Counted from the stretch's first letter, positions 4,597-63,678 are shown. The stretch: 64,000 nt of DNA from Bacteroidota bacterium (GCA_029907355.1 JARYLZ010000007.1:6275-70274); one strand, 5' to 3'. The notes: generated from the letters alone by a model not told the origin. Numbers and translations are program-made.

Positions 4597-5829
4597 ATGG
4601 CGGCTTATGACCGGCAAGGGGATACTCTGCTGCTTTGCACGCGCTACAGATTTCTTGAAAGTACGGATGCAGGCCGGAGCTGGTCCGTTCCATTTGAAGG
4701 CGGGGTATATAACGCCAGATATGCATCGACATTTTCCAGGCGAACAAAGAATCTGATCTATTTATATAACATTCCGCACTCGTACGATATATTGACAATC
4801 GAAAACGGCAAACGAGCTCAAAAGCGTATATGGGATCCTACCAGCTGCAATCTTGTCTACGATCCTCACAGCGCGGACACCTTTTATGGCGGCATCAATC
4901 GAGTATGGAGGATGACCGATTCGATAGTATCAGGCGCGGATTCAGGCTCCGTGCTGTATGCAGAAAACTTTATCGATAGTCTTCCGATTGCGGAACGCCG
5001 CTGTATATCATTCGATGCGCGGAGGAAGGGCGTCATGCTGCTCGGAGGCCTGGATCCGTACGATGCTCCGTTTCTCTACCGGACGGACGACCTTGGACTG
5101 CGGTGGGAACGCATCAACAGCATCCTGCTCTCTCAGCCACCGCTGGAAATCATCTTCGATCCCGCGGTTCCAAACCGGATTCTGGTAGCGGATCCGACGG
5201 GTGTGTATATCTCCACGGACGATGGCGTTACGTGGGTGTACTGCGATCCGGGCCTCGGCACGAGAAAGACGACGTGCATCGCTCTGAATCCCGACAATCC
5301 CATGGACATCTTTCTCGGAGTCGCCTCGCCGTCGAGAACCGAAGCCATTCCGCAATCGCGAGAGGACGGAGGACGGGTTTGGAGAAGCACGGACGGCGGT
5401 GATACGTGGCACAAGCTTCCGATCGACGGTTTATACAATTACAACATCTCGCAACTGCTCGTGTTCCGCAATCCTCTCCGCATGTTCGTCGGCACTCCAT
5501 GCGGCGCGTACGAGCATATTTTGGACTCGACAAGCTCGATCACACCACGGACGCCGGAGAAGGCGGTTGGCGTCCAGGTTCAGACCTATCCGAATCCCTG
5601 CCGGCAGAGCGTCACGATCAGTTACACGCTCCACGAAAGATCGGATATATGGATCACCGTGTATGACATTCTTGGTAGGGTTGTCTCTTCGAACAGGGAA
5701 AGCACAGTCTTGCCGGGCGTGCATCGGTTTGAGATGAATACATCCGGTTTACGGAGCGGCATGTACACCGTCACACTCCAGACCCGGAGCGGCGTGTCCG
5801 CGAGTACGATACTCGTCGCTCGGCCCTGA
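4597..5829 (+). CDS. BNR/Asp-box repeat (sialidase-like beta-propeller) protein with a C-terminal T9SS sorting domain; possibly the intact 3' part of the disrupted upstream gene
   Basis: Repeated S-x-D-x-G-x-T-W Asp-boxes (STDAGRSW, TDDLGLRW, STDDGVTW, STDGGDTW). C-terminal tail VQTYPNPCRQSVTISYTLHERSDIWITVYDILGRVV...SGMYTVTLQT matches the T9SS sorting-domain pattern (NPF..., x-YD-x-GR-x-V, GxY). Confidence 0.7.
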   Translation: MAAYDRQGDTLLLCTRYRFLESTDAGRSWSVPFEGGVYNARYASTFSRRTKNLIYLYNIPHSYDILTIENGKRAQKRIWDPTSCNLVYDPHSADTFYGGINRVWRMTDSIVSGADSGSVLYAENFIDSLPIAERRCISFDARRKGVMLLGGLDPYDAPFLYRTDDLGLRWERINSILLSQPPLEIIFDPAVPNRILVADPTGVYISTDDGVTWVYCDPGLGTRKTTCIALNPDNPMDIFLGVASPSRTEAIPQSREDGGRVWRSTDGGDTWHKLPIDGLYNYNISQLLVFRNPLRMFVGTPCGAYEHILDSTSSITPRTPEKAVGVQVQTYPNPCRQSVTISYTLHERSDIWITVYDILGRVVSSNRESTVLPGVHRFEMNTSGLRSGMYTVTLQTRSGVSASTILVARP

Positions 5830-49072: not shown

Positions 49073-51910
49073 TCATGCCCCGGCGTTCGGGTCCTCGATC
49101 CGGACCCTTTCCCTCAATCCGAGGTCGTCCAGTATCTGCTCGATGTCGTTCTTGAAATGTTGCACGCGACTGCTCTCCAGGGTGACCGAGAATTCGATAC
49201 CGATCCTCAGGTCCGATCCGTCCCGCAATTTCGGGAGGATTTTCGTCCCCAGACGGTTCCAGACCTCTGGAGGCACTTCGCCGGTGATGGTCAATCTCCG
49301 GGTGATGGGCGTCGCGCATACGCAGGGCTGTCGTTTGCATGTCGGGCATACGATCGGCTGGGGACACGTGCAAGGATACGTGCCGCATTTCGGGCACGTC
49401 TTCGGCAGCTGTTCGCATCGGCAGGGGATGGTCAGGCATTTCGGGCACACGGTTGCCGGTGGTTTCGCCGCGTCTTTCCATCTCTTCGCTTCGTCCTGCA
49501 AGAGCAGGAATACATCCGCCTCGAACATGATGTCCGCCGGATCGATGGGCTCCTCGAACAGCACACGATCGTACCCGCCACCCGGTTTTCGCCCGTAAGC
49601 GATCCCGAACTCTCCCCTGCCCACGAATTCGACGATTTTGTTTCGAAGGGTCGCGTCGGGGTCCAGAAGGCGCGTGAGCGAACCGTTCAGGAAGCTCTGG
49701 CGCAGTCCGGACAGCGGCCAAGCACCGGATTCACGGAACACAGGCGGCCAGTTCCGTTCAATGTATCCCGATCCGACGGACTCGCTCAAGAGGGCTTGGG
49801 ACTTCAATGCCGTTATGACCCTCCCACAGAGCGTCTCGCTCCCGCTCGAGTGACCCGCGCCGAGGTCGATGGATTTCAGCCCGTCCGCCTCCTTACTATC
49901 CGCGATGACCACGAAACGGTAACCGCCCCAGACCTCGTCTTTTGCGGCTTCCTCCGCATCCGTCACCTTCGATTGAAGTTCCGCTCGGTCGCTTCGGTCG
50001 AAATCCCCGCCGAGTGTTCCCTCGGCCACTTCCTTCGCGACGCGTTTCCATGCCAGCCACAACTCGACTTTGTCGCGGAGAACGCGGCCGGGTTTCTTGA
50101 GACACCACACGAGCGAGCCGGGATAGAGCCTTGGCGACTTGCCCCGCTGACTCGTCCACTCCGCGATCTGGCGGCGCAGATCGCCTGCTCCGGTCCATTC
50201 CGATTCCGGATCGACGATAACCAGCGTGAGACGCGGCGTATCCGGCACGGCTGTTCCATCTTCGGGGAAGGATACCACGGGTACAGTCGCCCCTCGTTCG
50301 AACTCCTTCCGGATGAGCATCCGCATCGCGGGTTTGATTTCGGATTCCTCGTCGAGCGACGCCCGCCGGTCGCTGACGACCTTCTTCAAGGTCGGCTGGT
50401 GGCTGATCTTGAACCCGTCCGAGCCCACCCGCCGAATGAAATACGATTTGTCTTCCAATGCGAAGGCGGCATTATCGATCGAGGTCGTGTCTACCGCCGG
50501 CTCACCCAGGGCAAAACGCAGCTCCGGCAGGTGGGCCACCTTGTCCACCTGCCCGCCGGAAGACTCGAAGAGAATCGTCGTCCCCACCCGGCGGTGGATG
50601 TTCTTGAGCACGCCCGTGGTGTCCGCGTCGAGCGCACGGGCATGCGAATGCGCGCCGGCGATGTCGGAATCGATGGCGGCCACGAGCCGGGATTCGCCGA
50701 GCTGGCCCAACACGACGCTGCGGAACTCCGGCACTTCCAGCGGGGCAGATCCCAGCGTGATGAGCGGCTCGCGCCGCGACTCGGTAAACCCGGTCCGGTA
50801 CGCCCAGGAAATCCACTGCGCGAGCATGGCCAGCGTCCCTCGCGTCTGCTGGTACTGCGAAAGCGCCTGCCATTTTCTCTGGAACACCGAAAGCGTCGCC
50901 GGGTGGAACGGGTAGCATGCCTCGAACCTGTTGCGCAGGAATTCCCTGGCTTTGGTCTCGGTCGTCGCGGTATCTACCGCCGTCCATTCGGGTGGGAGTT
51001 GCGCCCGCCGTTCGAAGCACCAGTCGGCGTAAGCCTTGGCGACGTTCTTCCGTACGCGATCGTTGCCCATGTCCTCGAACAGCCGGCGCCGCACGACCTC
51101 GCTGATCTCCGTCTCATCGTTGGCGATGAGGTCTTTCGCCACACGGCGTACGACCTTGGTGAGCCTTTCCTGCCACTGCATGTCCCAGTCGGTCATCTCG
51201 ACCTGGCTGCGGGGCAGGCTGATGACGGCGGCCCCGTGCGTAACACCCGTTGCTGCCACCGTCAAATTCTGAATGAAAGCGTGGAACTGCTCCGCCATGC
51301 CGCGATGGCGGTTCAGGAAATTCAGCACTTCGTCGAAAAGGAGGAGTACCTGGCCGCCCGCCGCCTGGAAAACGCGAGCCAAAGCCTCTGTACCCGGCGG
51401 CGTGGTCTTGGCCGCCGAGCCCAACTCACGCACCCCCGCCTCTCCGGCCAACTGCCGAGCGATATCGATCCACGGCGTCTCGCGCCCTTCCTGCGGGTCC
51501 CAGGCATTGCCGACGAAGACACCCACTCGCGCCTTGGGTACGGAGGAGAGCCCGGCCTCCTTCAGCAACTCGGGTACACCGTTGTATTCCGCCGCTTTGT
51601 CGCCGCACATGGCAAGGTGGTAGAGAGCCGTCAGCGTGTGCGTCTTTCCGCCGCCGAACTGGGTGATGAGCGTCATGACCGGTGCGGTGTTCTCCGTTTC
51701 ACCGGAGAGACGACGGAGCACCATACTCGTATATTCCCGCAAGGCACGAGTCCAGCACGTACGCTCGAAGAATTGTTTCGGGTCCCGGTAATCCTCGGGC
51801 GCGGTCCCGGCGATGACTTGTTCCAGGTGGATGGCGAACTCGTCCGGGTTGAACGAGCGGCCCTCGCGGACTTCCTTGCGCGGCGTGGAGACTTTGTACC
51901 AAGGATCCAT
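49073..51910 (-). CDS. DUF499-family ATPase (BrxC/PglY-like P-loop NTPase) with a Cys-rich CPxC-repeat C-terminal tail
   Basis: Walker A QFGGGKTHTLTALYHL. The N-terminal region is DUF499-like and the protein is long at about 945 aa. The start is placed at MDPWYKV (51910) because the 15 upstream codons of the track ORF are a translation of the polypurine repeat. The tail is TVCPKCLTIPCRCEQLPKTCPKCGTYPCTCPQPIVCPTCKRQPCVC. Confidence 0.8.
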   Translation of the reverse strand: MDPWYKVSTPRKEVREGRSFNPDEFAIHLEQVIAGTAPEDYRDPKQFFERTCWTRALREYTSMVLRRLSGETENTAPVMTLITQFGGGKTHTLTALYHLAMCGDKAAEYNGVPELLKEAGLSSVPKARVGVFVGNAWDPQEGRETPWIDIARQLAGEAGVRELGSAAKTTPPGTEALARVFQAAGGQVLLLFDEVLNFLNRHRGMAEQFHAFIQNLTVAATGVTHGAAVISLPRSQVEMTDWDMQWQERLTKVVRRVAKDLIANDETEISEVVRRRLFEDMGNDRVRKNVAKAYADWCFERRAQLPPEWTAVDTATTETKAREFLRNRFEACYPFHPATLSVFQRKWQALSQYQQTRGTLAMLAQWISWAYRTGFTESRREPLITLGSAPLEVPEFRSVVLGQLGESRLVAAIDSDIAGAHSHARALDADTTGVLKNIHRRVGTTILFESSGGQVDKVAHLPELRFALGEPAVDTTSIDNAAFALEDKSYFIRRVGSDGFKISHQPTLKKVVSDRRASLDEESEIKPAMRMLIRKEFERGATVPVVSFPEDGTAVPDTPRLTLVIVDPESEWTGAGDLRRQIAEWTSQRGKSPRLYPGSLVWCLKKPGRVLRDKVELWLAWKRVAKEVAEGTLGGDFDRSDRAELQSKVTDAEEAAKDEVWGGYRFVVIADSKEADGLKSIDLGAGHSSGSETLCGRVITALKSQALLSESVGSGYIERNWPPVFRESGAWPLSGLRQSFLNGSLTRLLDPDATLRNKIVEFVGRGEFGIAYGRKPGGGYDRVLFEEPIDPADIMFEADVFLLLQDEAKRWKDAAKPPATVCPKCLTIPCRCEQLPKTCPKCGTYPCTCPQPIVCPTCKRQPCVCATPITRRLTITGEVPPEVWNRLGTKILPKLRDGSDLRIGIEFSVTLESSRVQHFKNDIEQILDDLGLRERVRIEDPNAGA

Positions 51911-51925
51911 GATCAACCTACGGTT

Positions 51926-51960
51926 GGAAGGCAAAAGGAAAAAGGTAAAAGGCAAAAGGG
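51926..51960. repeat. Polypurine repeat copy a (GGAAGGCAAAAGGAAAAAGGTAAAAGGCAAAAGGG), in inverted orientation to copy b
   Basis: I read this copy directly. It lies between the DUF499 start and the four-helix-bundle stop. Its reverse complement nearly matches copy b at 52335-52382. Confidence 0.7.
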
Positions 51961-51962
51961 TG

Positions 51963-52334
51963 TCATTTTGACTTTCTCTTTTTCGCGTTTACGACGATCG
52001 ATCCGATGATCCGAGACAACTCGTTGGCTTCTCGATTCAGCGAGTCGATCTGATCGGCTTCGCCGAAGCCGGCGGCCCGTAACAATCGAAGCCAGTAGAT
52101 GGTTTCCCGCGCCTCTTTCAGGGCAATCGCATATTTACTGACGAAATCCGCCAAGCTTTGACCGGCCTGGGCTTCCTCGACATTCGAGCCGATGGAGGTT
52201 CCCGACCGAAGCAATTGCTTTCCCAATGCCCGTGAAACATCCGCATACGCTTCTAGCCGCCGACAAAGACGCACGATTTCCACCGCGAAAGCGAAGGTGC
52301 GCTCCTTGATGTCCCGCGGCTTATCATTGTTCAT
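51963..52334 (-). CDS. Four-helix-bundle protein (TIGR02436-like, the family known from 23S rRNA intervening sequences)
   Basis: 123 aa reading MNNDKPRDIKERTFAFAVEIVRLCRRL...ALGKQLLRSGTSIGSNVEEAQAGQS...YAIALKEARETIYWLRLL. This matches the conserved pattern of that family. It is bracketed by inverted polypurine repeats. Confidence 0.75.
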   Translation of the reverse strand: MNNDKPRDIKERTFAFAVEIVRLCRRLEAYADVSRALGKQLLRSGTSIGSNVEEAQAGQSLADFVSKYAIALKEARETIYWLRLLRAAGFGEADQIDSLNREANELSRIIGSIVVNAKKRKSK

Positions 52335-52382
52335 TTCCTTTTCCCTTTTGTTTTTTCCTTTTGCCTTTTTCCTTTTTCCTTA
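52335..52382. repeat. Polypyrimidine repeat copy b (TTTCCTTTTCCCTTTTGTTTTTTCCTTTTGCCTTTTTCCTTTTTCCTTA)
   Basis: It lies between the four-helix-bundle start codon and the DUF1156 stop codon. Copies c (about 52978-53015) and d (about 53094-53127) have the same orientation and sit inside the DUF1156 gene about 108 bp apart. Confidence 0.7.
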
Positions 52383-55352
52383 TCTCGGCACTCCCAGAAG
52401 CATCGCATCCAGCAGGCGCTTCTCTTCGCTCGCTTTCGGGTACAACGCCGAGAGGGCATTTGACAGCCGCAGGAAATCCGGGCCGCGTTCCATCTCGGCT
52501 TTTATGAGGGTCCGGAGTGCGTTGGTATGGCCCCCCGCTTGAAGGAGCATCGCGGCATGGACACGGTCGAGCGTCGTCGGACCATGTCCATCACGGCTAT
52601 TCAGAGAATGCAGAGATTCCTCATCCATAATGATCCTCTTTCCTCTGTGCCCTCTGTGTCTCCGTGGTGATTCTTCCATCTCGGGGAAGAGCACTAGCTG
52701 AAGGTTCTTCTTCGGGTCTTGAACGCTCCAGTCGGCCACAGCGTCCGCGCCATCCTCGCCGAAGAGCTGCCTGGCGCGTTCTGACACGGCCATGAGCCGC
52801 ACCACGCCTTTCTTCGTCTCGATGATGCGGCCCTCCCACTTGGGAAGGTCAATCCCCAGAGGCTGAGCGAAACGGCGCACCACGTCGAAGACAAGACTGA
52901 AACCTTTGGGCTTGCTTTTCGACTCGACGTCCTCGTCATCCTCCTCTTCCACCCAATCCCCGACCTCCTCATCGTTAATTCTTTTACCTTTTTCCTTTTC
53001 CCTTTTTCCTTCCCCATCTGTGACCTGCAGCGTCCACAGAAACAGTGCCGTCAGGCGTGCGTCCTCTTCCAACTCCTGCCCCGCCCCCTCCATTTTTCCT
53101 TTTACCTTTTTCCTTTTTCCTTCCCCCATCACCTGCTCCAGCGCCGTGCGGCCGACGACTTCCCATACTTTCTCCAGGAACTCCGCCAGTTTCACCTCGC
53201 GCCCCTCGGCGGTTTCGACTTTGCGGTAGCGGCTGAAGATTTCCAGCGCCGGGCCGATGCAGGCGAAGACGAGGTCTGCGCCGCGAATGCCCTCGCCCTG
53301 CAGCCGCTCCATCCAATCACCCACGCGCTTGGGAAGTTCTCGCAACACCTCGCCCCAGTCGCCCACCGGCGCATCCTCGGGCCGCGGGCGGCAGACGAGG
53401 TGGACGCTGGTTTCAAGTGCTGCGTAGCCCTGGCCGCGCATGCGCTGTCTGCGTTCGGTGGCGATGGGCCACGAACCGGTTGTGCGCCATCCCGCCTGTA
53501 CCAGCGCCGAGACGAGCGCTTCCCAGCGGTCGGTGTCCTTGTGGGCGAAAACAACCGAGGCCACTCCATCCTCGCGGATAATCCGCTTCATACGGCCAAA
53601 GGCCTCATACATGCGGCTCTCGTACCACTGACGGTCATGCACGCCGCTGTCCTTGACCGCACGGTTTTCTGTAAGTTCGCGGGCTTTTTCGGTCTCCAGG
53701 GCCGTGAAGGCCTGCGGCAGGCGATTCTTCAAGCCCAGCCGGAGCCAGCTGTAGAAAAAGTCTGAAAGGTGCGCGTAGGGAATCTGGTTGGCGTAGGGCG
53801 GGTCGGTGAAGACCAAGTCCACCGATTCTTCCGGCAGGACAGCGTCCAGCACGTTGGCCAGGAGCGGCGACGAGGGTTGGTAGCGGACGGTAGAGAGGTT
53901 CCGAAGCGCGCTCTGGACACTGCGGATGGAGTAGCCCAGGCCCTCGCAGTTCGGGCTCAAGGGATTGCCTTCCACAAAGTCGGCGCGCATGGGAACGCCG
54001 GAACCCTGTATGAAGATGGACGTTACCCCTTCCGAGAGCCAGACGCAAAGAGAGGTGTGGTACTGGCCATTGTCCGAGTAAGCCGCATAGAGGCAGGCGG
54101 CGAGACCGTCGAGCAGGTCTTTCTCCTTGGTCTTCTTGGCCGCTTCCTTGAGCGCGTCCTCGATGACCTCGTGCAGTACCCAGCGTGAGAAGCGTTGACG
54201 CGGGGCCAGGACTTCGACCCAAGTCTTGATTCCGTATGGACCAGGAGGAAATGCCCGCGTGTCGTTTTGCGGAAACCCGGCCATCTCAAACCTGATGTCC
54301 TTAGCTTTCACAAAAGCAGCAGAGAACGCTTTGAGGTCTTTAGGTGTCGGTGCGGAATATTCCTTTCCTCGGCTGTTTGTATTTCGCCACACGACCGCAA
54401 GAAGCATGGCATCATCCGCTCCGCCGCGCTTGTCGCGCAGTTGCGCCTGAACTCGTTCGCGCGGGGTAACCATGTGGCACTTCGGGCAGGTGGCGTTGTT
54501 CCCGGCAACGGTGCCGCGTTCGACCTCCTTGTCGCTGGAAGGCGTGAAGACCTCAATCTTCGGCTCCAACGATCCCTTGGGATATGTGATGCGCAGCGCT
54601 TTCTTGCGGCCCTTGGCCTGCGAAAGCCAGAGGTTACGCACGAGCGGAATGGTTGCCCCGCACCCGGCGGCCTCGCATTTGACGGTTCGCGCCCAGAGAT
54701 AGGCGAGCGGCTTCCGCCTGTACGCATCCGCCGGGTAGTACTCGCCCAGCCGCCTCTCTGCCTCTCTCAACACCCATTGTGACCATTCCTCGAACAGGTC
54801 GGCTAGTTGCGGTCCTTTGCGAGCACACCATTCGAGCGCGATCTTCAAGAGAAGCCACGCGACGGGATTGATGTCGGACGCAGTCACCTCGCAGCCGAGG
54901 CGCTGAGCTTCCAGCGGGATGGAGCCGCCGCCGGAGAACGGGTCCAGGACGTGCGGGACCGCACCGTGCGCGGCCTTCACCAGCTCGCGGGCCATGGAGA
55001 CGTAGCCTGCCACGCGGACGATGTCCCAGTTGGCGATGTCGGCCACGAAGGCCAGAAGCGCCTTTTGAAGGTCGGCGTCCTTCGGACCGACCTTCTTGTT
55101 CTGCTGGAGCGCCTTCCTCGCCGCCGCCTTGAACTCCGCCGGGCAGAGCGGGTCGCACGGGTCGGGGAGAAGCAGCGTCAGGAGAAGCGACCGGCAGGAG
55201 GCCAGCGGACGCCGCGCCCACCACGAGTGGAGAAGCGAGAGGTGGCCGCTGTCCACGCGGGTCTTGCGGTTGTTCTCCTCGACGCAGGCGTCGTTCACAC
55301 GCGACAGCGGAAAGTCCACCTCTGCCAGGCGTTTGCATTCTTTCGGGATCAT
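52380..55352 (-). CDS. DUF1156-family N6-adenine DNA methyltransferase (Zn-ribbon-containing)
   Basis: The N-terminus KRLAEVDFPLSRVN...SGHLSLLHSWWARRPLA is the DUF1156 signature. The SAM/catalytic region shows FSGGGSIPLEA and the DPPY motif (LVFTDPPYANQIPY). Cys pairs fit a Zn ribbon (CEAAGCG, CPKCH). A K/E/G-rich internal duplication is encoded by repeat copies c and d. Confidence 0.85.
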   Translation of the reverse strand: MIPKECKRLAEVDFPLSRVNDACVEENNRKTRVDSGHLSLLHSWWARRPLASCRSLLLTLLLPDPCDPLCPAEFKAAARKALQQNKKVGPKDADLQKALLAFVADIANWDIVRVAGYVSMARELVKAAHGAVPHVLDPFSGGGSIPLEAQRLGCEVTASDINPVAWLLLKIALEWCARKGPQLADLFEEWSQWVLREAERRLGEYYPADAYRRKPLAYLWARTVKCEAAGCGATIPLVRNLWLSQAKGRKKALRITYPKGSLEPKIEVFTPSSDKEVERGTVAGNNATCPKCHMVTPRERVQAQLRDKRGGADDAMLLAVVWRNTNSRGKEYSAPTPKDLKAFSAAFVKAKDIRFEMAGFPQNDTRAFPPGPYGIKTWVEVLAPRQRFSRWVLHEVIEDALKEAAKKTKEKDLLDGLAACLYAAYSDNGQYHTSLCVWLSEGVTSIFIQGSGVPMRADFVEGNPLSPNCEGLGYSIRSVQSALRNLSTVRYQPSSPLLANVLDAVLPEESVDLVFTDPPYANQIPYAHLSDFFYSWLRLGLKNRLPQAFTALETEKARELTENRAVKDSGVHDRQWYESRMYEAFGRMKRIIREDGVASVVFAHKDTDRWEALVSALVQAGWRTTGSWPIATERRQRMRGQGYAALETSVHLVCRPRPEDAPVGDWGEVLRELPKRVGDWMERLQGEGIRGADLVFACIGPALEIFSRYRKVETAEGREVKLAEFLEKVWEVVGRTALEQVMGEGKRKKVKGKMEGAGQELEEDARLTALFLWTLQVTDGEGKREKEKGKRINDEEVGDWVEEEDDEDVESKSKPKGFSLVFDVVRRFAQPLGIDLPKWEGRIIETKKGVVRLMAVSERARQLFGEDGADAVADWSVQDPKKNLQLVLFPEMEESPRRHRGHRGKRIIMDEESLHSLNSRDGHGPTTLDRVHAAMLLQAGGHTNALRTLIKAEMERGPDFLRLSNALSALYPKASEEKRLLDAMLLGVPR

Positions 55353-57322
55353 TGCCCACCTCCTCGCTGTGGTTTGAGGGCAATGATCTTTTCGACGATG
55401 CCCTTCAGGGTCACGCTTATCTTCCCATCAGCCGATGCCTTCTCGACGATACGCTGGAGAACGACGGGGTTCTTCAACGCATCCTTCTTCTTTTGGATGC
55501 CGAGTTGCGTTTGGGCTTCCGAAAGCAACCGGCCAAACAGGTCTTTGCCGATTTCCTCTTCAAGCGTAGTCTCGAGTTTGACCTTGAAACAGGCGTATTT
55601 GTCTTTCACACCGCATGGCCAGTCTTCTTCCGACTCGCCGACAAGCCGCAGCAGCTTGCGGTTGTCTTCAGGAATAGCACCATCTTCACCATTATCGCTG
55701 TCCCAGACGACGTAAACCGGGATGCCGAGTCGCCGGAAAATTACCAGAGGGCGATCCAAGTTGTTCTTTCCGATGCAGGGGATAACCGAGATGCCTTCGC
55801 TGTCGAAATTGTGCCCCATCGACGCGGCTACGCCGAGAATGGCGGCGCGGTCATCCTCGCCTTCGACCAGCACCGCAACATCGGCAAAGAATCCTTCGTT
55901 GAGCCACGGAGTCATCACAGCCTGAAGACGGGGGCGAAGCGTATCGGCGGTGTACTTGGCACCTTGTTTGCCTCCCGCAATCCATATTTCTTCGGCTACT
56001 GCGCCCAGTTCTGCCTTGATAGCCTTTGTCACCCTCGGTTTCCCGGCGACATCATCGAACTTCCGCAAGAGGCGGATTTGCTCGAAGCGGTCGAGTCCGA
56101 CAAAAAGCGGGGAGTGCGTAGAGTAGAGGACCTGCGTCCGCTTCGCCACGCCGGGGATCGTGCCTTGCGACAGTTTCAGAAGGACGGACGCCATGTGCCG
56201 CTGGCGGCTCGGGTGTTGGTAGAGTTCCGGCTCCTCGATGGCAAGAACCAGGCTGGGGAGCTGCGGCTCACCCTGTTCGGGAATCTCCGCCTCCGACGCA
56301 AAGCCCTCTTCGGTTGCGGACTCAACGCCCTTGGCCGCAACGAGATGCTGCAACATGGTCAGGATGAAGGCGCGCTGGAGACCGTGGCCCGTCCGCTGGA
56401 CCGAGGACTTGTATCCGTCTTCGTGAAGTTTGACCTCGGCCTTCGGCAAGGGAAAATCAATGTCAACGAGTTTGGCCCATTCCATCGAGACGTTCGCTTC
56501 GGGGGCATATTGTCGTAGGGTTTCGGATAGCTGCGTCTGAAGCCCGGAAAGCTCCGTGAGTCTTGCGGGGTCCATGATTTCGCGGTACTTCTTCTGCGTC
56601 TCGTCCTTCAGCGTCACGAATTCCTTCCGGTTGGTGAGTGCGCGCCGAACCACGAGGTCCATGATTTCCGTGACGCATGATCCCTTGCCTTCGGTGGCGT
56701 CATCCGACGCATCCCGGACGGCGGGGATGTGGATGAAGCGCGTGTGACGGCCGAGGTAGCCGTTACCGACTTCCGTGAATCCGAAAAATTGCCCATCGTC
56801 GCGCATGCGGGAACATGAACCTGGGTTGGCGGCCTCCCACTTTCTCAGTTCTTCCTCGACTTGATCCGCGTTCCGAACTGTAGGAAGTGAAGAGTAATTT
56901 GGCTTGCTCCTGATTTCGTTGTATTTGTTCCTGATCTCCGATTTTCCACCTGCGTTGCGAACTTCGGCAAATTCCGGATTCTGGAGTTTCATGCCATGGT
57001 AGGTTCCCGACTTCTTGGCCGAGAAAGAGAAGACTCTGGCAACGGTGAGGTCGTTGCCATCGAGATACGGCGCAAACAGGGCGTTCTCCTCGGTGCCGAG
57101 GTCGGTGAACGTCAAGGCGATTTCGATTTCCCTACTTGTGTCCTCCGCGTAGAAATCCTCAGCCGAGACAGCCGCCTTCGGGTCGTAGAACAACTCCATC
57201 GCCCGAAGGAAGGATGACTTGCCGGTGCCGTTGCGCCCGACAAGGACCGTCAGGTTGTCGCAATCAATCCGCTCGTCGAGAACCGAACGGAAGTTTTTAA
57301 CATGGATGGCCTTGACAATCAT
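55349..57322 (-). CDS. OLD-family nuclease: N-terminal ABC-type ATPase plus C-terminal Toprim domain
   Basis: Walker A VLVGRNGTGKSSFLRA, Walker B LAIEEPELYQHP and a Toprim block VLVEGEDDRAAILGVA...VIPCIGKNNL. Its stop overlaps the DUF1156 start by 4 nt. Confidence 0.8.
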   Translation of the reverse strand: MIVKAIHVKNFRSVLDERIDCDNLTVLVGRNGTGKSSFLRAMELFYDPKAAVSAEDFYAEDTSREIEIALTFTDLGTEENALFAPYLDGNDLTVARVFSFSAKKSGTYHGMKLQNPEFAEVRNAGGKSEIRNKYNEIRSKPNYSSLPTVRNADQVEEELRKWEAANPGSCSRMRDDGQFFGFTEVGNGYLGRHTRFIHIPAVRDASDDATEGKGSCVTEIMDLVVRRALTNRKEFVTLKDETQKKYREIMDPARLTELSGLQTQLSETLRQYAPEANVSMEWAKLVDIDFPLPKAEVKLHEDGYKSSVQRTGHGLQRAFILTMLQHLVAAKGVESATEEGFASEAEIPEQGEPQLPSLVLAIEEPELYQHPSRQRHMASVLLKLSQGTIPGVAKRTQVLYSTHSPLFVGLDRFEQIRLLRKFDDVAGKPRVTKAIKAELGAVAEEIWIAGGKQGAKYTADTLRPRLQAVMTPWLNEGFFADVAVLVEGEDDRAAILGVAASMGHNFDSEGISVIPCIGKNNLDRPLVIFRRLGIPVYVVWDSDNGEDGAIPEDNRKLLRLVGESEEDWPCGVKDKYACFKVKLETTLEEEIGKDLFGRLLSEAQTQLGIQKKKDALKNPVVLQRIVEKASADGKISVTLKGIVEKIIALKPQRGGGQ

Positions 57323-57327
57323 GACCG

Positions 57328-57540
57328 TTACCTCACCTGCCTGTTGGAATACCGCCCCTTGATGTGGTTGTGAAAATACGACCCCTTTGATGCGGCTCGC
57401 ATGAAGTCCTGATAAACGGTCTCTGGTACACCAGAGTACTGGTAAACGCCTCCGCTATTGAACTCCACCTCCAGCGTCCTCGACGCTGGGTCATAGCCCA
57501 CGGAACGGATATTGCTTGAGCGGACTGGTCTTCTGTTCAT
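57328..57540 (-). CDS. KTSC-domain protein
   Basis: 70 aa reading [57 protein letters not shown], which matches the KTSC domain pattern. Its start overlaps the RmuC stop by 4 nt. Confidence 0.7.
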
Positions 57541-58964
57541 GCTTGGTTGTCCTCCTTCACCTCCGGCGCGGAGATCGCCCGGGGCGTCGTCTCAACAGGT
57601 GATAGAGGCGGTATCTCGTTGCCGGTCGCGGCCCCCAAGTCCTTGAACTTGCGGGCGGCGGGCAGAACCCGGGCTTCCATCGAGCCGACGGCGCTGTTGT
57701 AGGCCGCGTTGGCCTTCTCCAGACCTTTGCCGATTGCAGCAAGGTGCTCAGCCATGGTTCTCATGCGTTCGTAGAGATCCTTGCCAAGGTTACTAATTTC
57801 CTGGGCATTCTTCGCGATTTGTTCTTGTCGCCATCCATAAGCCACGGCTCGCAGAAGCGCGATAAGCGTAGTGGGGGTCGCCAGAACTACGCGCTGCGCC
57901 AGACCGTCCTCAATGAGTGAGTGGTCGGCGTCCACCGCCGCGCCGAAGAACGACTCGCCGGGAATGAACATGACCACGAACTCGGGGGCCTTGGGAAACT
58001 GGCTCCAGTACGCCTTCGAGGCAAGGGTGTTCATGTGACTGCGAACTTGCGCTGCGTGCCGCGCCATGGCCGCATTGCGCACGTCTTCGGACTCGGCGGC
58101 GACGGCGTCAAGGTACGCCTCCAGCGAAACCTTCGCATCCACGACGATCTCCCGTTCGGCTGGCAGCCGTATGAGCAGGTCCGGACGCAGTCGCCCTTCC
58201 TCGGTGCCGACGGTCACCTGCTCGGCGAAATCGCAATGTTCGGACATCCCCGCCAATTCCACCACGCGACGCAGGGTCATCTCGCCCCAGCGGCCGCGTA
58301 CCTGCGGCTTGCGCAGGGCCGTGACGAGATTCGCGGTCTCTCTCTGCAACTGCTGCTGGCTCGTAGACAGGAGTCTCAAGTGCTCTGTCAGGCCGGAATA
58401 GGCTTCCTGGCGGTTTTTCTCAATCGTGCGGACGTATTCCTCGAACTTGGCAATGGACTCCGCCAGCGGCTTGACCATACCTTGAATGGCTTCCTGACGT
58501 TTGCCGAGATCGCCCCTGGCATCCGTCAGCACTTTGTCGAGCGTTTCCTGCGCCAGTTTCAGGAACGCGGTCGTGCTGGTGTTGAGCGTGTCTCCGGCAA
58601 GAGCCTTGAAGGTGTCCGTGAGCTTGGCCTTGGCCTCCTCCAAGAGCTTCTTCTCTTCCTGAAGCCGCTGGACGGTCTCCGCCAACTGAGTTTCGGCCTT
58701 CACCCTCGCGCTCGTCTCAGCAGCCAGTTGATCCCTGACCTTTGTGAAGTCCTCGGAGGCTTTCTGATTCTGCGAACGCAGTTCGGCAATAGTCCCTTCC
58801 AGCCCTGAGGCGCGCCCCTCGGCGGTATTCGCCCGGCGCTCGGATTCCTCCAACTTGGCGGTCATGAGCCTTGTGGCACGAGCGGTTGCAAGTAGCCAGG
58901 CCACAAGGCCGCCAATCAGCGCACCGGCCAAAACATACAATAGATAAATCATCGCAGCATTCAT
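57537..58964 (-). CDS. rmuC: DNA recombination protein RmuC
   Basis: From [19 protein letters not shown]: an N-terminal TM anchor, a long coiled-coil, and a C-terminal RmuC nuclease-like region ([18 protein letters not shown]...[11 protein letters not shown]...[15 protein letters not shown]). The track ORF extends 119 codons upstream through the YhcG gene and is ignored. Confidence 0.8.
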
Positions 58965-60169
58965 TCTCCGCCTCCTCCGCGTCTCTGCCGTACAATCATC
59001 CGCCGTTCCAGCGCCGCCCGCGTCCGTTCGATCTCGGCCGCCAATTCCTTCTCGTCCGGCAAGGCGGTTTTGTATTCCGCCGCCAGCACTTTGTTGGGGA
59101 GCCGGTCGAGGGCGTAGCGCACCACGGCCTCGTCCTTCTGGGCGCAGAGGATCAAGCCGACGGGCGGGTTCTCGCCGTCGCGGGTCCAGTGTTCCTGGGC
59201 ATAATTGAGATAGAGATGCATCTGGCCCGCGTCGGCATGGGTGAACTTGCCGATTTTGAGTTCGACAATGACCAGGCACTGCAACCGGCGATGGAAGAAG
59301 ACGAGGTCCACACGATACCACTCATCGCCGATGCGCAGGCGTTTCTGGCGGCCGGCAAAGCAGAAGTCGCCGCCGAGTTCCAGAAGGAAGGTCTCCAGGT
59401 GCCGGATCAGTGCTTCTTCGAGGTCGGACTCGGAGTACTCGTCCTTGAGGCCGAGGAACTCCAGCACATAGGGGTCCTTAATCTCCTCCTCGGGAGTGAT
59501 GCGGTCTTCCGGGAGGGCTTTCTGCCCTTTGGCGAGCATGGCGGCTTTATTGTGAGAGAGCGCGGTCCGTTCGTAGAATTGGGAGTTGATCTGCCGGTCG
59601 AGTTGCCGGACCGACCAGCCGCCCCGCAGGGCTTCCGTTTCGTAGAACCGGCGGGCGTTTTCGTTTTTGACCGCCAGCAGGCGGACGTACGCCGACCACG
59701 GGAGGGGGAAGTGAAAGGAGACGTTCTTCAGGAACTGTTCGATGGCGCCGTGCCCGGTTTCTCTTGATGGTGCCGAAAGAATCGGAAGGCTGGATTCTGC
59801 AGACGGCGTCTGCAGAATCTTAGGTTTGTCGGATTCCGCAGACGGTGTCTGCAGATTTGGCCATGCCAGGTAGAATGCCCTCATTTGCCACACATTGCGC
59901 ACGGAAAATCCTTTGCCATAGCGGGCGGACAAATCGGCCGCCAGACGCTCGATCAATTTCTCGCCGTACTCCGCCCGAACCCCTCCCTTCTGCTCGCTTT
60001 CGACGATCCGCCTGCCGATCAGCCAATAGGCAGCCGTCATGACGGAATTCACCGAGCGTGCCGCTGTTCTTCTCGCCGCAACGATAACCTCGGAAACATC
60101 GCCGAGAATCGCGCCATACGCCGAGTCGGCAACGACTGCAGGTGGAGTTCCGGGCGACTTGGGCCTCAC
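58961..60169 (-). CDS. YhcG/DUF1016-family nuclease with the PD-(D/E)xK restriction-endonuclease fold
   Basis: 402 aa. The N-terminal DUF1016-like helical region is followed by a C-terminal nuclease core ([45 protein letters not shown]). Its stop overlaps the rmuC start and its start overlaps the helicase stop, 4 nt each. Confidence 0.75.
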
Positions 60170-63100
60170 TTTTCTTCCTCCTCCGTGTTCGCTGTGCCTC
60201 TGCGGTGAACATCATATCCCGGCGAATCTTCCCGCACCTGCATGGGTCGCGTCATGGCGTCCACTTCCAGCCAATAGTGTTGGACCTTCTTGACCTCATG
60301 CCACGGGAAGCGCGCCGGATCGCGGATGGGCTCCTGGAGCGTGGGCTTGCCAGCGCAGTTCGTGACGATGTAGAGCCAGTAGCAGTCGCGCCGGTCCTCG
60401 GCGACGCGGCGCTCGTTGGGCGTGAGGAGGATCGTCCCGGTCGGATCGGCCAATCCTTTGACCTCGATGAGCCGCAGTTCGCCGGAATTGAGGTCGAGGC
60501 TGGTGATATCGTAGCCGAGGTTCTTCTCGTGGACGTCGTAAACCTGGCGTCCTTTGGAACGCTCGTACTCCATGACGACGCGCATGGCGGCGGCTTCCGT
60601 TTCGGCGCTGGGCTGGAGGTGGCGCACTTCGGGCAAACGGCGATCCGGGTGCGGCAGGACGAGGACACTGGCGATGCGCTCGACGGCCTGGAGCGTGAGC
60701 GACTGCTGCTGCCGGAGTTCCTTGCGGCGGCGGTCGCGCCGCGTCCGGAGTTCGTCGTGACGGTTCACGGCCTGGGCGAGTCGTCCTTCGGCCCCAGGCT
60801 CCTTCCGGTCGATGGCCTCCTGGGCCTTTCCGATTTCCTCGTCCGCCCGCTGGATGAGTTCCGTGAGCGACCATTCCACATGCTGCTCGATGCGTTGCAC
60901 TTCGGCGGTCCGTTCCTTGCGGACCTCTTCCAGGAACGGCCGGAAGGCGTTTTCCTGAAGCCAAGCGAGGGCTTCCGGCTCGAAGGCGACCGGCGGCAAA
61001 GGATCGGGGGAAGCAGCGGGGATGAGATCCGCCAGGATCGTTTCACCACAGAGACGCAGAGAGCACCGAGGACCATTCGTGTTTCCCTCTTTGTTCTCGC
61101 TGTCTCCGTGACGGGTCTTCAAATCCACAGCGAAGAGACGTTCACGGACCACCTGTCCCAACCCGTCCACCACGCGGGCGCGGTAGAAATCGATGCGTGA
61201 CGGCTCTTCGTGTTGGAGGGAGTAGAAGCAGGCACCTTTGCCGAGGGCCTCGGCGGCCATGGCGCACGTGTGCCGGCGGACGGCTTCGAAGAGGGGATGG
61301 CCGGGCGTGACCCACTCGAGATTGTTCTTTTCAGCCGTGTCGCGGTCTGTCGAGCAGGGGGGATAGCGTGGAGCCAGCGGGGGGAGCTTCCAATCCGCCG
61401 CCCGTTCGTACTCCTTCAGGAACGAGGGCGTTCGGCCGGGTTCGAAAGTGTGAGGGAGATGCGGAACGTCCTTGATATCGAGGTCTGCATAGGAGGCGGC
61501 CTCGCGGATGAAGCGGGCGACGGTTTCCGGCACGACGCGGCGTTCCTGGGCGCGAGCCCGTCGCTCGATGAGCATCTCCAGATTGAGTTTCTTGGACGCC
61601 AAGCCCTCCAAAGCGTTCCGGCAGATGTCACGGAATCGGCCCTCGTCGACGTTCTTGAGCAGGCGTTCCTCGAGGTCGGCATCGCCGAGTTTCCCGGCGT
61701 AGTAGTCCCGCAGGATGCGCTCCACGTGGGCCGCAGGCAGGATTTCGCCGACGACGTTGAAGACGGCGTCGTCGTCCAGCGCGTCGCGGATTTCCTGGAG
61801 TTTCTCCAGCAACCGCTGCAGCACACTGCCCTCGATGGTGTTCGTGGCCACGAAGTTGAAGATCAGACAGTCCTTCCGCTGGCCGTAGCGATGGATGCGG
61901 CCCATGCGCTGTTCGAGGCGGTTGGGATTCCAGGGGATGTCGTAGTTGAACAGGATGTTGCAAACCTGGAGGTTGATGCCTTCGCCCGCCGCCTCGGTGG
62001 CCACGAGAATCTGGATTGCGCCCTCGCGGAATTGCTGCTCCGAGTAGAGCCGCGTGCCCGGCTCGTCGCGGGAACCGGGTTTCATGCCGCCGTGGATGCA
62101 GCCGACGCGGAATCCCCAACCCTTCAGCTTCCCGACGAGGTAGTCGAGCGTGTCCTTGAATTCGGTGAAAATGAGCAGACGCTTGTCCGGCTGGTCGAAG
62201 AAGCCTTCTCCGTGGAGGAGGTCCTTGAGTTTCGACAACTTCGCTTCGCAGTCGCCGTTTTCCACGGCCTGAGCCAGGTCTGCCAGTCGGCGGAGTTCGG
62301 AAATCTCCTCCCGCACCTGGTCGGCGTTCCTGGCCAGCGTGATGGCTTCGAGCAATTCCTCCATGCGCTCGCGCTCGCTCTCTTCCATTTCCTCGATCTC
62401 TTCCGGGTCCGGCAGATCGGGCAGATCGAGGCTGACGAGTTCCTGAGCCTTCTTCAGACCTTCCTCCAGCCGGCGGGCGCGTTTCTCGAGGCTGTGACGC
62501 ATGGCATACGTGCTGGAAGCCAGCCTGCGTTGGTAGAGGGACATCAGGAAACCGACCGCACGGGCACGGGGATCGTCGCCCTGGGCGGCGGCCTTGGCGC
62601 TCTGACGCTTCACGAATCGCGTAACCTCCCGGTAGAGCTCGAATTCCGCGCCATCGAGTTGGAAATCCACGGTGTGGGGGATACGCTTCGTGAAGATCTT
62701 CTCGGTGACCCAGGTGCCATCCGGCCGCCGCTCCGGGAAGTAGACCATCGCTTCCTTGGTGCGGCGGAGATAGAACGGTGCGCGACGACGCTCCATCGCC
62801 TCGCGGATCGACCGCACGTCCGCATAGGCGTCCGGTTCGAGGAGTTGAAGGAACAGGGAGAAGTTCTCCGGGTCGCCCTTGTGCGGCGTCGCCGTGAGCA
62901 TCAAGATGTGGTCCGATGTATCCCTCAGGAGCTCGCCGAGGGCGTAGCGGGCGGTCTTGCGGGCCGGAGGCGTCCAGGACATGCGGTGCGCCTCGTCCAC
63001 GATGACGAGGTCCCAGTGGACCTGCCTCAAGCCGGGGAGGATCTCCGTCCGCTTTGCGAGGTCCAGCGACGTAATGACCTTATTCCGCTCCAGCCACTGG

Positions 63101-63678
63101 TTGACGCCGAACTGCTCGCGAATATCGCCGCCCTTGAGGATCACGAACGTCTCGTCGAACTTTTCCTTGAGTTCGCGCTGCCATTGGAAGGAGAGGTTGG
63201 CCGGACAGACGATGAGAATGCGCTCAGCGAGACCGCGCAGTTGAAGTTCCCGAATCAAGAGGCCGGCCATGATCGTCTTGCCGGCTCCGGCGTCATCGGC
63301 GAGAAGAAACCGGACCCGTGCAGCCTTGAGGAGGTAATCGTAGACGGCTTCGAGCTGGTGCGGTAAAGGGTCGACACGTGATATGGAAAGGCCGAAGTAC
63401 GGGTCGAACTCCCAGGCGATGCCGAGGGTGTATGCCTGGAGGCCCAAGCGCAAGAGACGCCCATCTCCGTCGTAACGGAAGCCGACGTCGAGAATGGTGA
63501 GGGCGGCAAAGTCCTGAGCGGTCAACGTCACCTTGCGGAATCGTTCGCTCTGCGTACCGACCAGACCAACGACCCAGGTTCCGTTTCCGTTATCGTGCAC
63601 CGTCTCCACGCGCATCGGCTCGTTGAAGATCGGGCCGGTGAGCACTTGGCCTTCGACCGGGAAATGCCGTTCACTCAT
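60166..63678 (-). CDS. SNF2-family DEAH-box helicase fused to a C-terminal DUF3883 (restriction-endonuclease-like) domain
   Basis: 1170 aa. Motif I LADDAGAGKT, motif II VIVDEAHRM, motif III MLTATPHKGD and motif VI QRMGRIHRYGQ are present. The C-terminal block GYDITSLDLNSGELRLIEVKGLADPTGTILLTPNERRVAEDRRDCYWLYIV is DUF3883-like. Confidence 0.85.
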   Translation of the reverse strand: MSERHFPVEGQVLTGPIFNEPMRVETVHDNGNGTWVVGLVGTQSERFRKVTLTAQDFAALTILDVGFRYDGDGRLLRLGLQAYTLGIAWEFDPYFGLSISRVDPLPHQLEAVYDYLLKAARVRFLLADDAGAGKTIMAGLLIRELQLRGLAERILIVCPANLSFQWQRELKEKFDETFVILKGGDIREQFGVNQWLERNKVITSLDLAKRTEILPGLRQVHWDLVIVDEAHRMSWTPPARKTARYALGELLRDTSDHILMLTATPHKGDPENFSLFLQLLEPDAYADVRSIREAMERRRAPFYLRRTKEAMVYFPERRPDGTWVTEKIFTKRIPHTVDFQLDGAEFELYREVTRFVKRQSAKAAAQGDDPRARAVGFLMSLYQRRLASSTYAMRHSLEKRARRLEEGLKKAQELVSLDLPDLPDPEEIEEMEESERERMEELLEAITLARNADQVREEISELRRLADLAQAVENGDCEAKLSKLKDLLHGEGFFDQPDKRLLIFTEFKDTLDYLVGKLKGWGFRVGCIHGGMKPGSRDEPGTRLYSEQQFREGAIQILVATEAAGEGINLQVCNILFNYDIPWNPNRLEQRMGRIHRYGQRKDCLIFNFVATNTIEGSVLQRLLEKLQEIRDALDDDAVFNVVGEILPAAHVERILRDYYAGKLGDADLEERLLKNVDEGRFRDICRNALEGLASKKLNLEMLIERRARAQERRVVPETVARFIREAASYADLDIKDVPHLPHTFEPGRTPSFLKEYERAADWKLPPLAPRYPPCSTDRDTAEKNNLEWVTPGHPLFEAVRRHTCAMAAEALGKGACFYSLQHEEPSRIDFYRARVVDGLGQVVRERLFAVDLKTRHGDSENKEGNTNGPRCSLRLCGETILADLIPAASPDPLPPVAFEPEALAWLQENAFRPFLEEVRKERTAEVQRIEQHVEWSLTELIQRADEEIGKAQEAIDRKEPGAEGRLAQAVNRHDELRTRRDRRRKELRQQQSLTLQAVERIASVLVLPHPDRRLPEVRHLQPSAETEAAAMRVVMEYERSKGRQVYDVHEKNLGYDITSLDLNSGELRLIEVKGLADPTGTILLTPNERRVAEDRRDCYWLYIVTNCAGKPTLQEPIRDPARFPWHEVKKVQHYWLEVDAMTRPMQVREDSPGYDVHRRGTANTEEEEK

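Follow-up and report, generated by a model that had tools for sequence, protein, structure and literature searches.

The question raised by this locus is what a polypurine/polypyrimidine motif of about 35 bp represents at the four places where it occurs, between positions 51,926 and 53,127, in a 64,000-nucleotide stretch of DNA from a Bacteroidota bacterium (GCA_029907355.1, JARYLZ010000007.1:6275-70274; the whole stretch is called the window hereafter). Two of the copies, a and b, are inverted with respect to each other and bracket a small gene encoding a four-helix-bundle (4HB) protein, and the other two, c and d, are located inside the neighboring gene, hmaB, which encodes a DUF1156 methyltransferase. 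Our conclusion is that the motif is probably the arm sequence of a small gene cassette that spreads horizontally, is probably selfish, and resides in mRNA much as an intervening sequence (IVS) resides in rRNA, and that stray arms of this kind were absorbed in frame into HmaB.

The unit of the motif is a tandem heptad with a period of 7 nt, and the purine strand reads (AAAAGGN)n, where n is 4-7. The genes of this region all lie on the minus strand. Copy b (52335-52382) is the upstream arm and is purine-rich on the minus (mRNA) strand; in the mRNA sense it reads TAAGGAAAAAGGAAAAAGGCAAAAGGAAAAAACAAAAGGGAAAAGGAA, i.e., approximately 6-7 purine heptads. Copy a (51926-51960) is the downstream arm and is purine-rich on the plus strand; its mRNA-sense sequence, CCCTTTTGCCTTTTACCTTTTTCCTTTTGCCTTCC, consists of pyrimidine heptads that are the complement of those in b, c, and d. 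Copies c (52980-53015) and d (53090-53127) are solo arms, purine-rich on the minus (mRNA) strand and translated in frame in HmaB, where they encode GEGKREKEKGK and GEGKRKKVKGKMEG, respectively. Complementarity to arm a amounts to 90-96% across 25-30 nt for b, 96% across 24 nt for c, and 91% across 35 nt for d, which is the best complement of this arm. A search of the 64 kb with the degenerate three-heptad pattern CCTTTTNCCTTTTNCCTTTT, allowing up to 3 mismatches, gave 14 overlapping matches, every one of them in clusters a-d, compared with 0.02 in shuffled sequence. Among the 30-nt windows of the 64 kb with at least 90% purine or pyrimidine, a heptad tract is present at only these four places, and the remaining three windows are unrelated pyrimidine-rich runs. 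The pattern search and the complementarity agree on the four positions that an earlier reading of this DNA from its sequence alone (the sequence-only reading) had listed. When the four copies of the window were aligned with three copies of a second locus, all seven fitted one register with a common four-heptad core.

The 4HB gene (51963-52334, minus strand; 123 amino acids) is placed between the genes for HmaB (52380-55352, minus strand) and HmaC, a DUF499 ATPase (49073-51910, minus strand). Its product matches PF05635 (23S_rRNA_IVP; E = 6.8e-22), TIGR02436 (E = 2.4e-27), and PDB entry 2rld (E = 4e-23), and its nearest solved structures, 2rld and 2gsc, are five-chain entries. The PF05635 and TIGR02436 matches support the link, already suspected from the sequence, between this gene and the open reading frames (ORFs) of 23S rRNA IVSs. 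The protein has matches to four-helix-bundle families only, so it is not of the HUH (Y1) transposase type. Arm b spans the interval from the HmaB stop codon, TAA (52380-52382), to the ATG of the 4HB gene (52334), and it holds the sole Shine-Dalgarno-like sequence for this gene. Arm a begins 3 nt past the 4HB stop (51963) and is followed by CAACCGTAGGTTGATC and then by the ATG of hmaC. The conserved start of HmaC is the ATG at 51910 (MDPWYKV..., compared with MEPWYKV... in homologues); a longer DUF499 ORF, which starts at a TTG at 51955, results from reading through arm a and carries 15 extra codons, and the homologues support the suggestion that this N-terminal extension is an artifact. The G+C content of the 4HB ORF is 0.54, that of the arms is 31-43%, and that of the host genes is 0.62; the lower value of the ORF relative to the host genes supports the interpretation of the cassette as an inserted element. 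Consensus scans found no promoter-like site in the cassette interior and only one terminator-like match in the cassette, which is under the shuffle mean of 2.7. A search of viral contigs found no 4HB relative of this subfamily. An exact-sequence look-up gave no record of the 4HB protein of the window; identical proteins from a metagenome-assembled genome at NCBI did appear in the homologue search.

The same arms accompany the gene in other genomes. In locus L001, the slot between hmaB and hmaC contains a 4HB gene that is 69% identical to that of the window and has the same heptad arms. A metagenome scan with a 4HB alignment provided 80 loci with 58-71% identity, 69 of them with both flanks, and nearly all of the 80 have upstream purine heptads (AAAAGGN or AAAAGTN) and downstream complementary pyrimidine heptads. 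An ungapped arm complementarity score of at least 14 was reached by 51 of 69 loci and by 2 of 207 shuffled controls; three or more heptad units are present upstream in 49 of 69 loci and downstream in 51 of 69, as opposed to 32 of 800 background windows. The arms could be aligned in 57 of 71 loci, the median length of the paired part being 30 nt. The arms pair more strongly within a locus than across loci (mean, 17.8 versus 14.9; p = 3e-4), and variants co-vary on both sides: AAAATTA is found with TAATTTT, and ATGCAAAAGTAAAA is found with TTTTGCATTTTTAC. In the orthologous set L136/L139/L140/L145, invariant columns account for 93-96% of the arms, 71% of the 4HB ORF, and 42-48% of the spacers, and the invariant ORF columns at codon positions 1, 2, and 3 are 82%, 84%, and 47%, respectively; a second orthologous 4HB set has the same pattern, with the arms highest. 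This contrast indicates functional constraint on the arms and purifying selection on the 4HB protein. It is very likely that a and b are the conserved ends, in inverted orientation, of a cassette built around the 4HB gene. The sequence-only reading had anticipated this in likening the pair to the terminal inverted repeats of a small element inserted at this position, and arms of the same kind are found on both sides of most homologous 4HB genes, in a wide range of contexts.

The cassette is not specific to defense genes and occupies many kinds of gene junction, including those of housekeeping operons. The gene on its 3' side is hmaC in about 13 loci, and in others it encodes a flavoprotein oxidoreductase, a LeuC-like protein, an ABC ATPase, a response regulator, a Hen1-like protein, or other products; the end of the 3' arm is mostly 5-20 nt ahead of the start of the next gene. 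HmaB homologues with 50-84% identity occur in many phyla, and the slot between hmaB and hmaC is itself variable among homologous Hma operons. It holds a 4HB gene in the window, L001, L125, and others; a 123-amino-acid GxxExxY/PDDEXK_3 gene in L002 and L205; a DUF8426 gene (321-324 amino acids) without obvious arms in L208 (6946-7920), L210 (6942-7907), and L212 (4155-5120); and a GGACT/AIG2-like gene, also without obvious arms, in L214 (5049-5492). In L215 the slot is empty, with a spacer of 37 nt, and the HmaB of this locus has no in-gene tract. The window and L002 have HmaB proteins that are 84% identical, yet their cassettes differ. The comparison of this junction with operons that lack the 4HB gene thus yields one empty slot and other cargo elsewhere, as is expected of an inserted element.

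The GxxExxY gene belongs to a sister cassette. It encodes a PDDEXK_3 nuclease of 112-134 amino acids (TIGR04256, PF13366; L001:4280-4760, L002:10330-10790, L205:6940-7395) and is flanked by inverted arms of the CACAGAG type, CACCACAGAGACACAGAG...CTCTGTGTCCTCTGTGGTG. In L205 both sides are altered together, to CGCAGAG and CTCTGCG. The two cassettes use the same operon slots.

Tracts c and d share one reading frame in HmaB; the c region encodes GEGKREKEKGKRIND (52971-53015) and the d region encodes GEGKRKKVKGKMEG (53085-53126). They were previously described as an internal duplication with copies 108 bp apart. Two K/E/G-rich, in-frame copies are indeed present in the gene, at a measured spacing of 111 nt (37 codons) from start to start; they differ in site and in distribution among homologues, which points to two separate arm occurrences and not to a simple duplication. 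At site d, the HmaB alignment normally has the conserved segment VLGTAEAKARNGAAGALEEDARL, which is present in nearly all of 108 homologues. Tract d places approximately 36 nt of heptads where approximately 24 nt encode TAEAKAR, a net gain of 4 codons, and this replacement is found in the window, L001, and L133. Nearly all of the 108 homologues are without tract d and have TAEAKARNGAAG at this position, and L215 has neither c nor d; this is the pattern of an in-frame insertion. Tract c opens a hypervariable acidic linker on the 3' side of the conserved LFLWTLQ motif. Its heptad tract (GEGKSEKEKGK-like) is common to a whole HmaB subclade, with the heptads kept at the DNA level, and other homologues have at site c a complete in-frame hairpin of the CACAGAG type (HRRDAE...SASSAP), for which the fold in L002 gives z = -3.56. 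The c tract of the window is one base off the d tract of L001, and the d tract of the window is the best match of arm a, a combination that is compatible with local gene conversion.

The second arm type has also entered HmaB of the window, in a degenerate form. A CACAGAG/CTCTGTG hairpin at 52596-52670 (minus strand) is in frame and encodes SPRRHRGHRGKRII...SLHSLNS; its fold is weak (z = -1.0), and it is common to the HmaB homologues P0002, P0010, P0017, P0107, and P0117. In homologous operons, repeats of this type are found on both sides of GxxExxY (PF13366) cassettes, although the window has no GxxExxY gene. For tracts c and d, we consider an origin from the repeat family of arms a and b likely.

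A three-heptad scan of one genome per species detected at least 120 loci in Acidobacteriota, Cyanobacteria, Bacteroidota, Chloroflexota, Verrucomicrobiota, Gemmatimonadota, and Gammaproteobacteria, many of them in high-GC genomes. A 4HB gene of this subfamily is close by in six of the loci scanned, i.e., five of the 120 matches listed and L001, and L111 has the complete arm-ORF-arm layout. At least 25 of the 120 loci listed, from many phyla, are ORF-less hairpins in which a pyrimidine arm follows the purine arm after 10-150 nt; some genomes, such as MNJR01, contain several such hairpins with a loop sequence common to the copies. Scattering of the motif over genomes had been named beforehand as a sign of simple low-complexity bias; the motif is indeed found in many genomes, yet it takes the form of structured inverted pairs there, which favors a mobile element. 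Coding sequences are entered elsewhere as well. In a DUF1156 methyltransferase homologous to HmaB (L088:4842-7976, minus strand), a whole heptad hairpin is in frame at a different, central site (EKGKRQKEKGK...FPFSFSLLP), and the linker of the same protein has a CACAGAG hairpin too. In the 16S rRNA methyltransferase RsmB (L109:6432-7799, minus strand; E = 9e-120), a solo heptad tract, RQKAKGKRQ, is in frame after the S-adenosylmethionine-binding motif CAAPGGKTT. Four further long ORFs across tracts (L019, L041, L073, and L112) were discarded because they appear to be spurious high-GC ORFs, and inspection of distant purine/pyrimidine tract pairs in the genome loci for other cargo gave only coincidental genes, e.g., that for RuvC.

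Several features of these additional copies were observed in passing. The ORF-less heptad hairpins of Pyrinomonadaceae and other Acidobacteriota have a conserved inner loop palindrome, gaagccaNNcttttaataaaa... (L027:4230-4341, L032:3064-3173, L036:4072-4226 and 6765-6901, and L122:4060-4210), and look like a family resembling miniature inverted-repeat transposable elements (MITEs) that multiplied within genomes. Some predicted lipoprotein signal peptides seem to owe their hydrophobic core to the pyrimidine arm read on the opposite strand, e.g., LLPFAFCLLPFALLLAGC (L084:2601-2757 and 5411-5445; L124:1696-1733), which may be exaptation or a mis-extended ORF. In Nostoc linckia (L071:3600-3760 and 6700-6830), heptad-type arms are found amid other tandem heptamers (ggggtat/ggggcat and ccccatct runs), and these runs recall the short tandemly repeated repetitive (STRR) heptamers of cyanobacteria.

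A mechanism can be proposed for the cassette, which consists of a 5' purine-heptad arm, the 4HB ORF (S23p/Avd-like, pentamer type), and a 3' complementary pyrimidine arm. Positioned between the hmaB stop and the ribosome-binding site of hmaC, it would be cotranscribed with both genes. The RNA fold of the locus pairs b with a (z = -3.97), and the predicted duplex energies are -39.9 kcal/mol for b/a and -47.6 and -50.4 kcal/mol for a with c and d, respectively. Pairing of b and a in the polycistronic transcript would form a stem of approximately 30 bp that loops out the 370-nt ORF, sequesters the Shine-Dalgarno sequence of the 4HB gene, and brings the end of hmaB beside the start of hmaC. Such a stem is a plausible RNase III substrate by analogy with ORF-bearing 23S rRNA IVSs, and the cassette would then be a selfish insertion that is nearly neutral for the host RNA. 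The arms may double as ends or recognition sites for the spread of the cassette. Tracts c and d would be solo 5' arms that came to lie in frame in permissive HmaB loops, either by insertion of a hairpin element or by gene conversion from nearby arms, and that were retained as K/E/G-rich linker sequence. We rate the RNA-stem, IVS-like action of the arms as a serious possibility that falls somewhat short of even.

Several observations weigh against the cassette as we describe it. Clear arms are absent from about a quarter of the 4HB homologues. No target-site duplication is visible in the window or L001, where the sequences at the outer arm boundaries, CCGAGA/TAAGG... and ...CCTTCC/AACCGT, have no direct repeat; this result, together with the inverted orientation of a and b, leaves the suggestion that these copies are a duplicated target site unsupported. 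No transposase or recombinase for the cassette was found, and Rfam gave no match at a permissive threshold in 51500-53500 or in 14 related loci. Site-c heptad tracts are present in operons without a 4HB gene (L212 and L213, which were chosen for having the tract), and the pairing of c or d with the 3' arm of its own locus has no consistent same-locus excess or co-variation. Arm mismatches are G.U in 58 cases and A.C in 44 (p = 0.2), i.e., there is no excess on the sense strand, so RNA pairing and DNA-level symmetry are indistinguishable by this measure. The absence of a G.U bias fits arms that act purely in DNA, as hairpin-forming ends of a transposable family, autonomous or nonautonomous, of the REPIN-RAYT or MITE kind, which a trans-acting or cassette-encoded protein would cut and paste; tracts c and d would represent footprints or isolated ends, and RNA folding would be a by-product. 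Several further features speak for this account: hairpins with these arms but no ORF recur several times per genome, hairpins are in frame within coding genes, the cargo changes between HmaB genes that are 84% identical, and a parallel cassette, which has arms of another type, encodes a PD-(D/E)XK nuclease (GxxExxY). It has to contend with the lack of a visible target-site duplication, with a neighborhood free of HUH or DDE transposases, and with a 4HB protein that has no known catalytic motif; moreover, at orthologous sites that are fixed the arms hardly vary, in contrast to the diverged spacers and synonymous positions, which implies a function in place, beyond transposition. We regard a purely DNA-level role as possible but doubtful. 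Avd of diversity-generating retroelements (DGRs), a relative of the 4HB protein, binds nucleic acid and a reverse transcriptase, and the heptads might similarly be putative binding sites for the oligomeric 4HB protein, 4-6 repeats corresponding roughly to a pentameric ring, in autoregulation or in a nucleoprotein complex, with c and d as additional operator-like sites. Consistent with this, conservation is higher in the arms than at protein-coding positions, and the arm type follows the cargo (AAAAGGN with 4HB and CACAGAG with GxxExxY). Each of the seven Hma loci with a 4HB gene (7/7) has at least one heptad tract in hmaB, as against none of six loci picked regardless of tracts; this association can be explained by shared descent of the C-terminal hmaB block with the cassette, and heptad tracts without a 4HB gene in L212, L213, L088, and L109 also count against binding sites, L212 and L213 having led us to drop a strict link between the cassette and the in-gene tracts. 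Such binding is unlikely as the explanation of the arms, and both it and the DNA-level account are compatible with the horizontally spreading, IVS-like cassette and do not exclude it.

The remaining explanations concern chiefly what happened in hmaB. Tracts c and d could be an ordinary internal duplication or a low-complexity expansion, selected as a flexible K/E/G-rich linker and coincidentally similar to the arms; both are in length-tolerant regions, site c is hypervariable in all homologues, and the product is in frame and hydrophilic. Coincidence of this kind is quite improbable in view of the exact four-heptad arm register that diverged loci retain in their DNA, the displacement by d of a segment conserved in nearly all of 108 homologues, the complete in-frame hairpins of the second type that the same linker holds elsewhere, and a chance expectation for the motif of 0.02 per window; compositional bias was rejected as the main explanation of the heptads. 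Phase-variable methyltransferases are common, and a unit of 7 nt, which is not a multiple of 3, would allow slippage to switch HmaB by frameshift. The number of heptads varies between the arms of different loci and also between Coxiella strains (PMC4990558). Within hmaB, just two identical units are adjacent, all c and d tracts in 9 loci are in frame with approximately 4 units, and none of 120 homologues is a frameshifted allele, all of which makes phase variation highly improbable. Rewriting of hmaB segments by a DGR-like process, with the Avd-like 4HB protein and an A-rich template, is the least probable of the explanations considered. It would account for the homology of the 4HB protein to Avd, for the A-richness of the tracts, and for the fact that d substitutes for a conserved segment instead of interrupting it. 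No reverse transcriptase domain was detected among the ten neighboring proteins scanned, the rest of the window being outside that scan; the differences between copies are not confined to adenines and include C/T and G/A positions; and the same cassette adjoins housekeeping genes. Phase variation and DGR-like retrohoming were therefore rejected as main explanations, and absorption of stray cassette arms is the account of c and d that we retain.

The operon that hosts the cassette was typed with PADLOC and Pfam models. In addition to HmaB (DUF1156 N6-adenine methyltransferase, 990 amino acids; PADLOC HmaB E = 1e-88) and HmaC (945 amino acids from the conserved ATG at 51910; PADLOC HmaC E = 2e-96), it includes HmaA, an SNF2/NOV_C helicase (60166-63678, minus strand; PADLOC HmaA E = 8e-175). 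With helicase, methyltransferase, and ATPase in one operon, the locus has the composition of the HmaA-HmaB-HmaC system, and judged by this gene content the host is an Hma-type (BREX-related) anti-phage defense operon. Between hmaA and hmaB are genes for RmuC (57537-59321), a KTSC-like protein of 70 amino acids (57328-57540; 89% identity to the KTSC gene of L002), and an OLD-family ATPase-nuclease (55349-57322), all on the minus strand. This block of RmuC, KTSC-like protein, and OLD-family ATPase/TOPRIM nuclease (55349-59321 in the window) is conserved in L002, L205, and L210; in L208 the OLD position is taken by an AAA_13 ATPase, and L215 has a proteasome-like gene. The Hma operon of this subtype resembles a scaffold for embedded effectors. 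The C-terminal region of the DUF499 protein (49307-49450, minus strand) contains a Cys/Pro-rich run of CPxC-like repeats (VCPKCLTIPCRCEQLPKTCPKCGTYPCTCPQPIVCPTCKRQPCVCATP). According to passages of published surveys, about two thirds of hma operons carry inserted genes (PMC11232893; PMC12839542). In these passages the insertions into Hma/BREX-related (DUF499-centered) systems are other defense systems, and armed 4HB or GxxExxY cassettes and in-frame relics in HmaB are not mentioned there (PMC11232893; PMC12839542).

These results bear on the annotation of genes that are widespread. The 4HB (S23p/Avd-like) and GxxExxY genes are among the commonest small "hypothetical" genes of environmental bacteria and clutter defense islands. 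The conservation and co-variation of the arms, a constraint on the arms above that on the gene, and the spread of ORF-less and in-frame copies recast both genes as mobile, structure-armed cassettes and not as components of the host system; the 4HB gene described here is probably not an Hma subunit. The arm also has practical consequences, namely, a false N-terminal extension of HmaC in ORF calling and, for protein evolution, a conserved HmaB segment rewritten by arm sequence. As a tentative and broader idea, TIGR02436 and GxxExxY (TIGR04256) genes may each supply the protein component of a separate family of selfish cassettes with hairpin arms, and each protein would recognize the arm type of its own family. 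The cassettes and their ORF-less derivatives would have colonized junctions and coding sequences in many phyla, with the 23S IVS as the first-noticed case, and the arms might be self-excising or self-insulating in RNA, which would make the element an "mRNA intervening sequence." A limited search of the literature turned up no account of 4HB genes outside rRNA that have heptad arms, nor of in-frame relics in HmaB.

Among known systems, the Avd accessory protein of DGRs has a homologous four-helix-bundle fold and a pentameric assembly. Unlike in DGRs, there is no adjacent reverse transcriptase among the ten neighboring proteins and no template/variable repeat pair, and the differences between copies are not adenine-specific. 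Rickettsia palindromic elements and MITEs are similar in that hairpin-type repeats are placed in frame at permissive surface or linker sites, as is observed at three sites of HmaB, in RsmB of L109, and in the HmaB homologue of L088. The present family differs from them in that many in-gene copies are solo arms, an ORF-bearing form exists, and no target-site duplication was seen. In the systems of repetitive extragenic palindromes (REP/REPIN-RAYT), a single gene likewise stands between inverted short repeats, and ORF-less hairpin doublets of the repeat are scattered in genomes. For the present arms such hairpins were seen in other genomes, several of them in MNJR01, and the window holds this locus only; the resemblance suggests a putative cognate pair of protein and repeat. 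In contrast to these systems, the cargo here is a four-helix bundle, or a small PD-(D/E)XK nuclease in the sister cassette, in place of the HUH Y1 transposase; each arm is a series of tandem heptads instead of a single palindrome; and the mobility of the cassette is putative.

The known system closest to the cassette is the ORF-bearing IVS in the 23S rRNA of Leptospira, Coxiella burnetii, and Brucella, in which a PF05635/TIGR02436 ORF is similarly in the loop of a long stem formed by terminal inverted repeats. The Coxiella IVS has an AG-rich Shine-Dalgarno region and tandem heptameric repeats upstream of its S23p ORF; RNase III cleaves at the first of these repeats, the Shine-Dalgarno sequence is removed, and the number of repeats varies among strains (PMC4990558). 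The cassette has the same arrangement just 5' of its ORF, also with a variable number of heptads; its G+C content is likewise under that of the host, and both elements are regarded as selfish and horizontally transferred (PMC4990558). The ORF family and the stem-forming terminal inverted repeats are thus shared with 23S IVSs, whereas the location within a 23S rRNA gene is not: the host RNA is that of a protein-coding defense operon, and elsewhere that of many other junctions, instead of helix 25 or 45, and Rfam detected no rRNA. The repeat unit is AAAAGGN here and GACAGAT there, and RNase III excision, which was shown for the IVS, is only deduced for the cassette. The Coxiella ORF is decaying, whereas the ORF of the cassette is under purifying selection. 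The comparison extends a 30-year-old puzzle of rRNA intervening sequences to mRNAs, where it can be tested through RNase III dependence and through binding of the protein to its arms.

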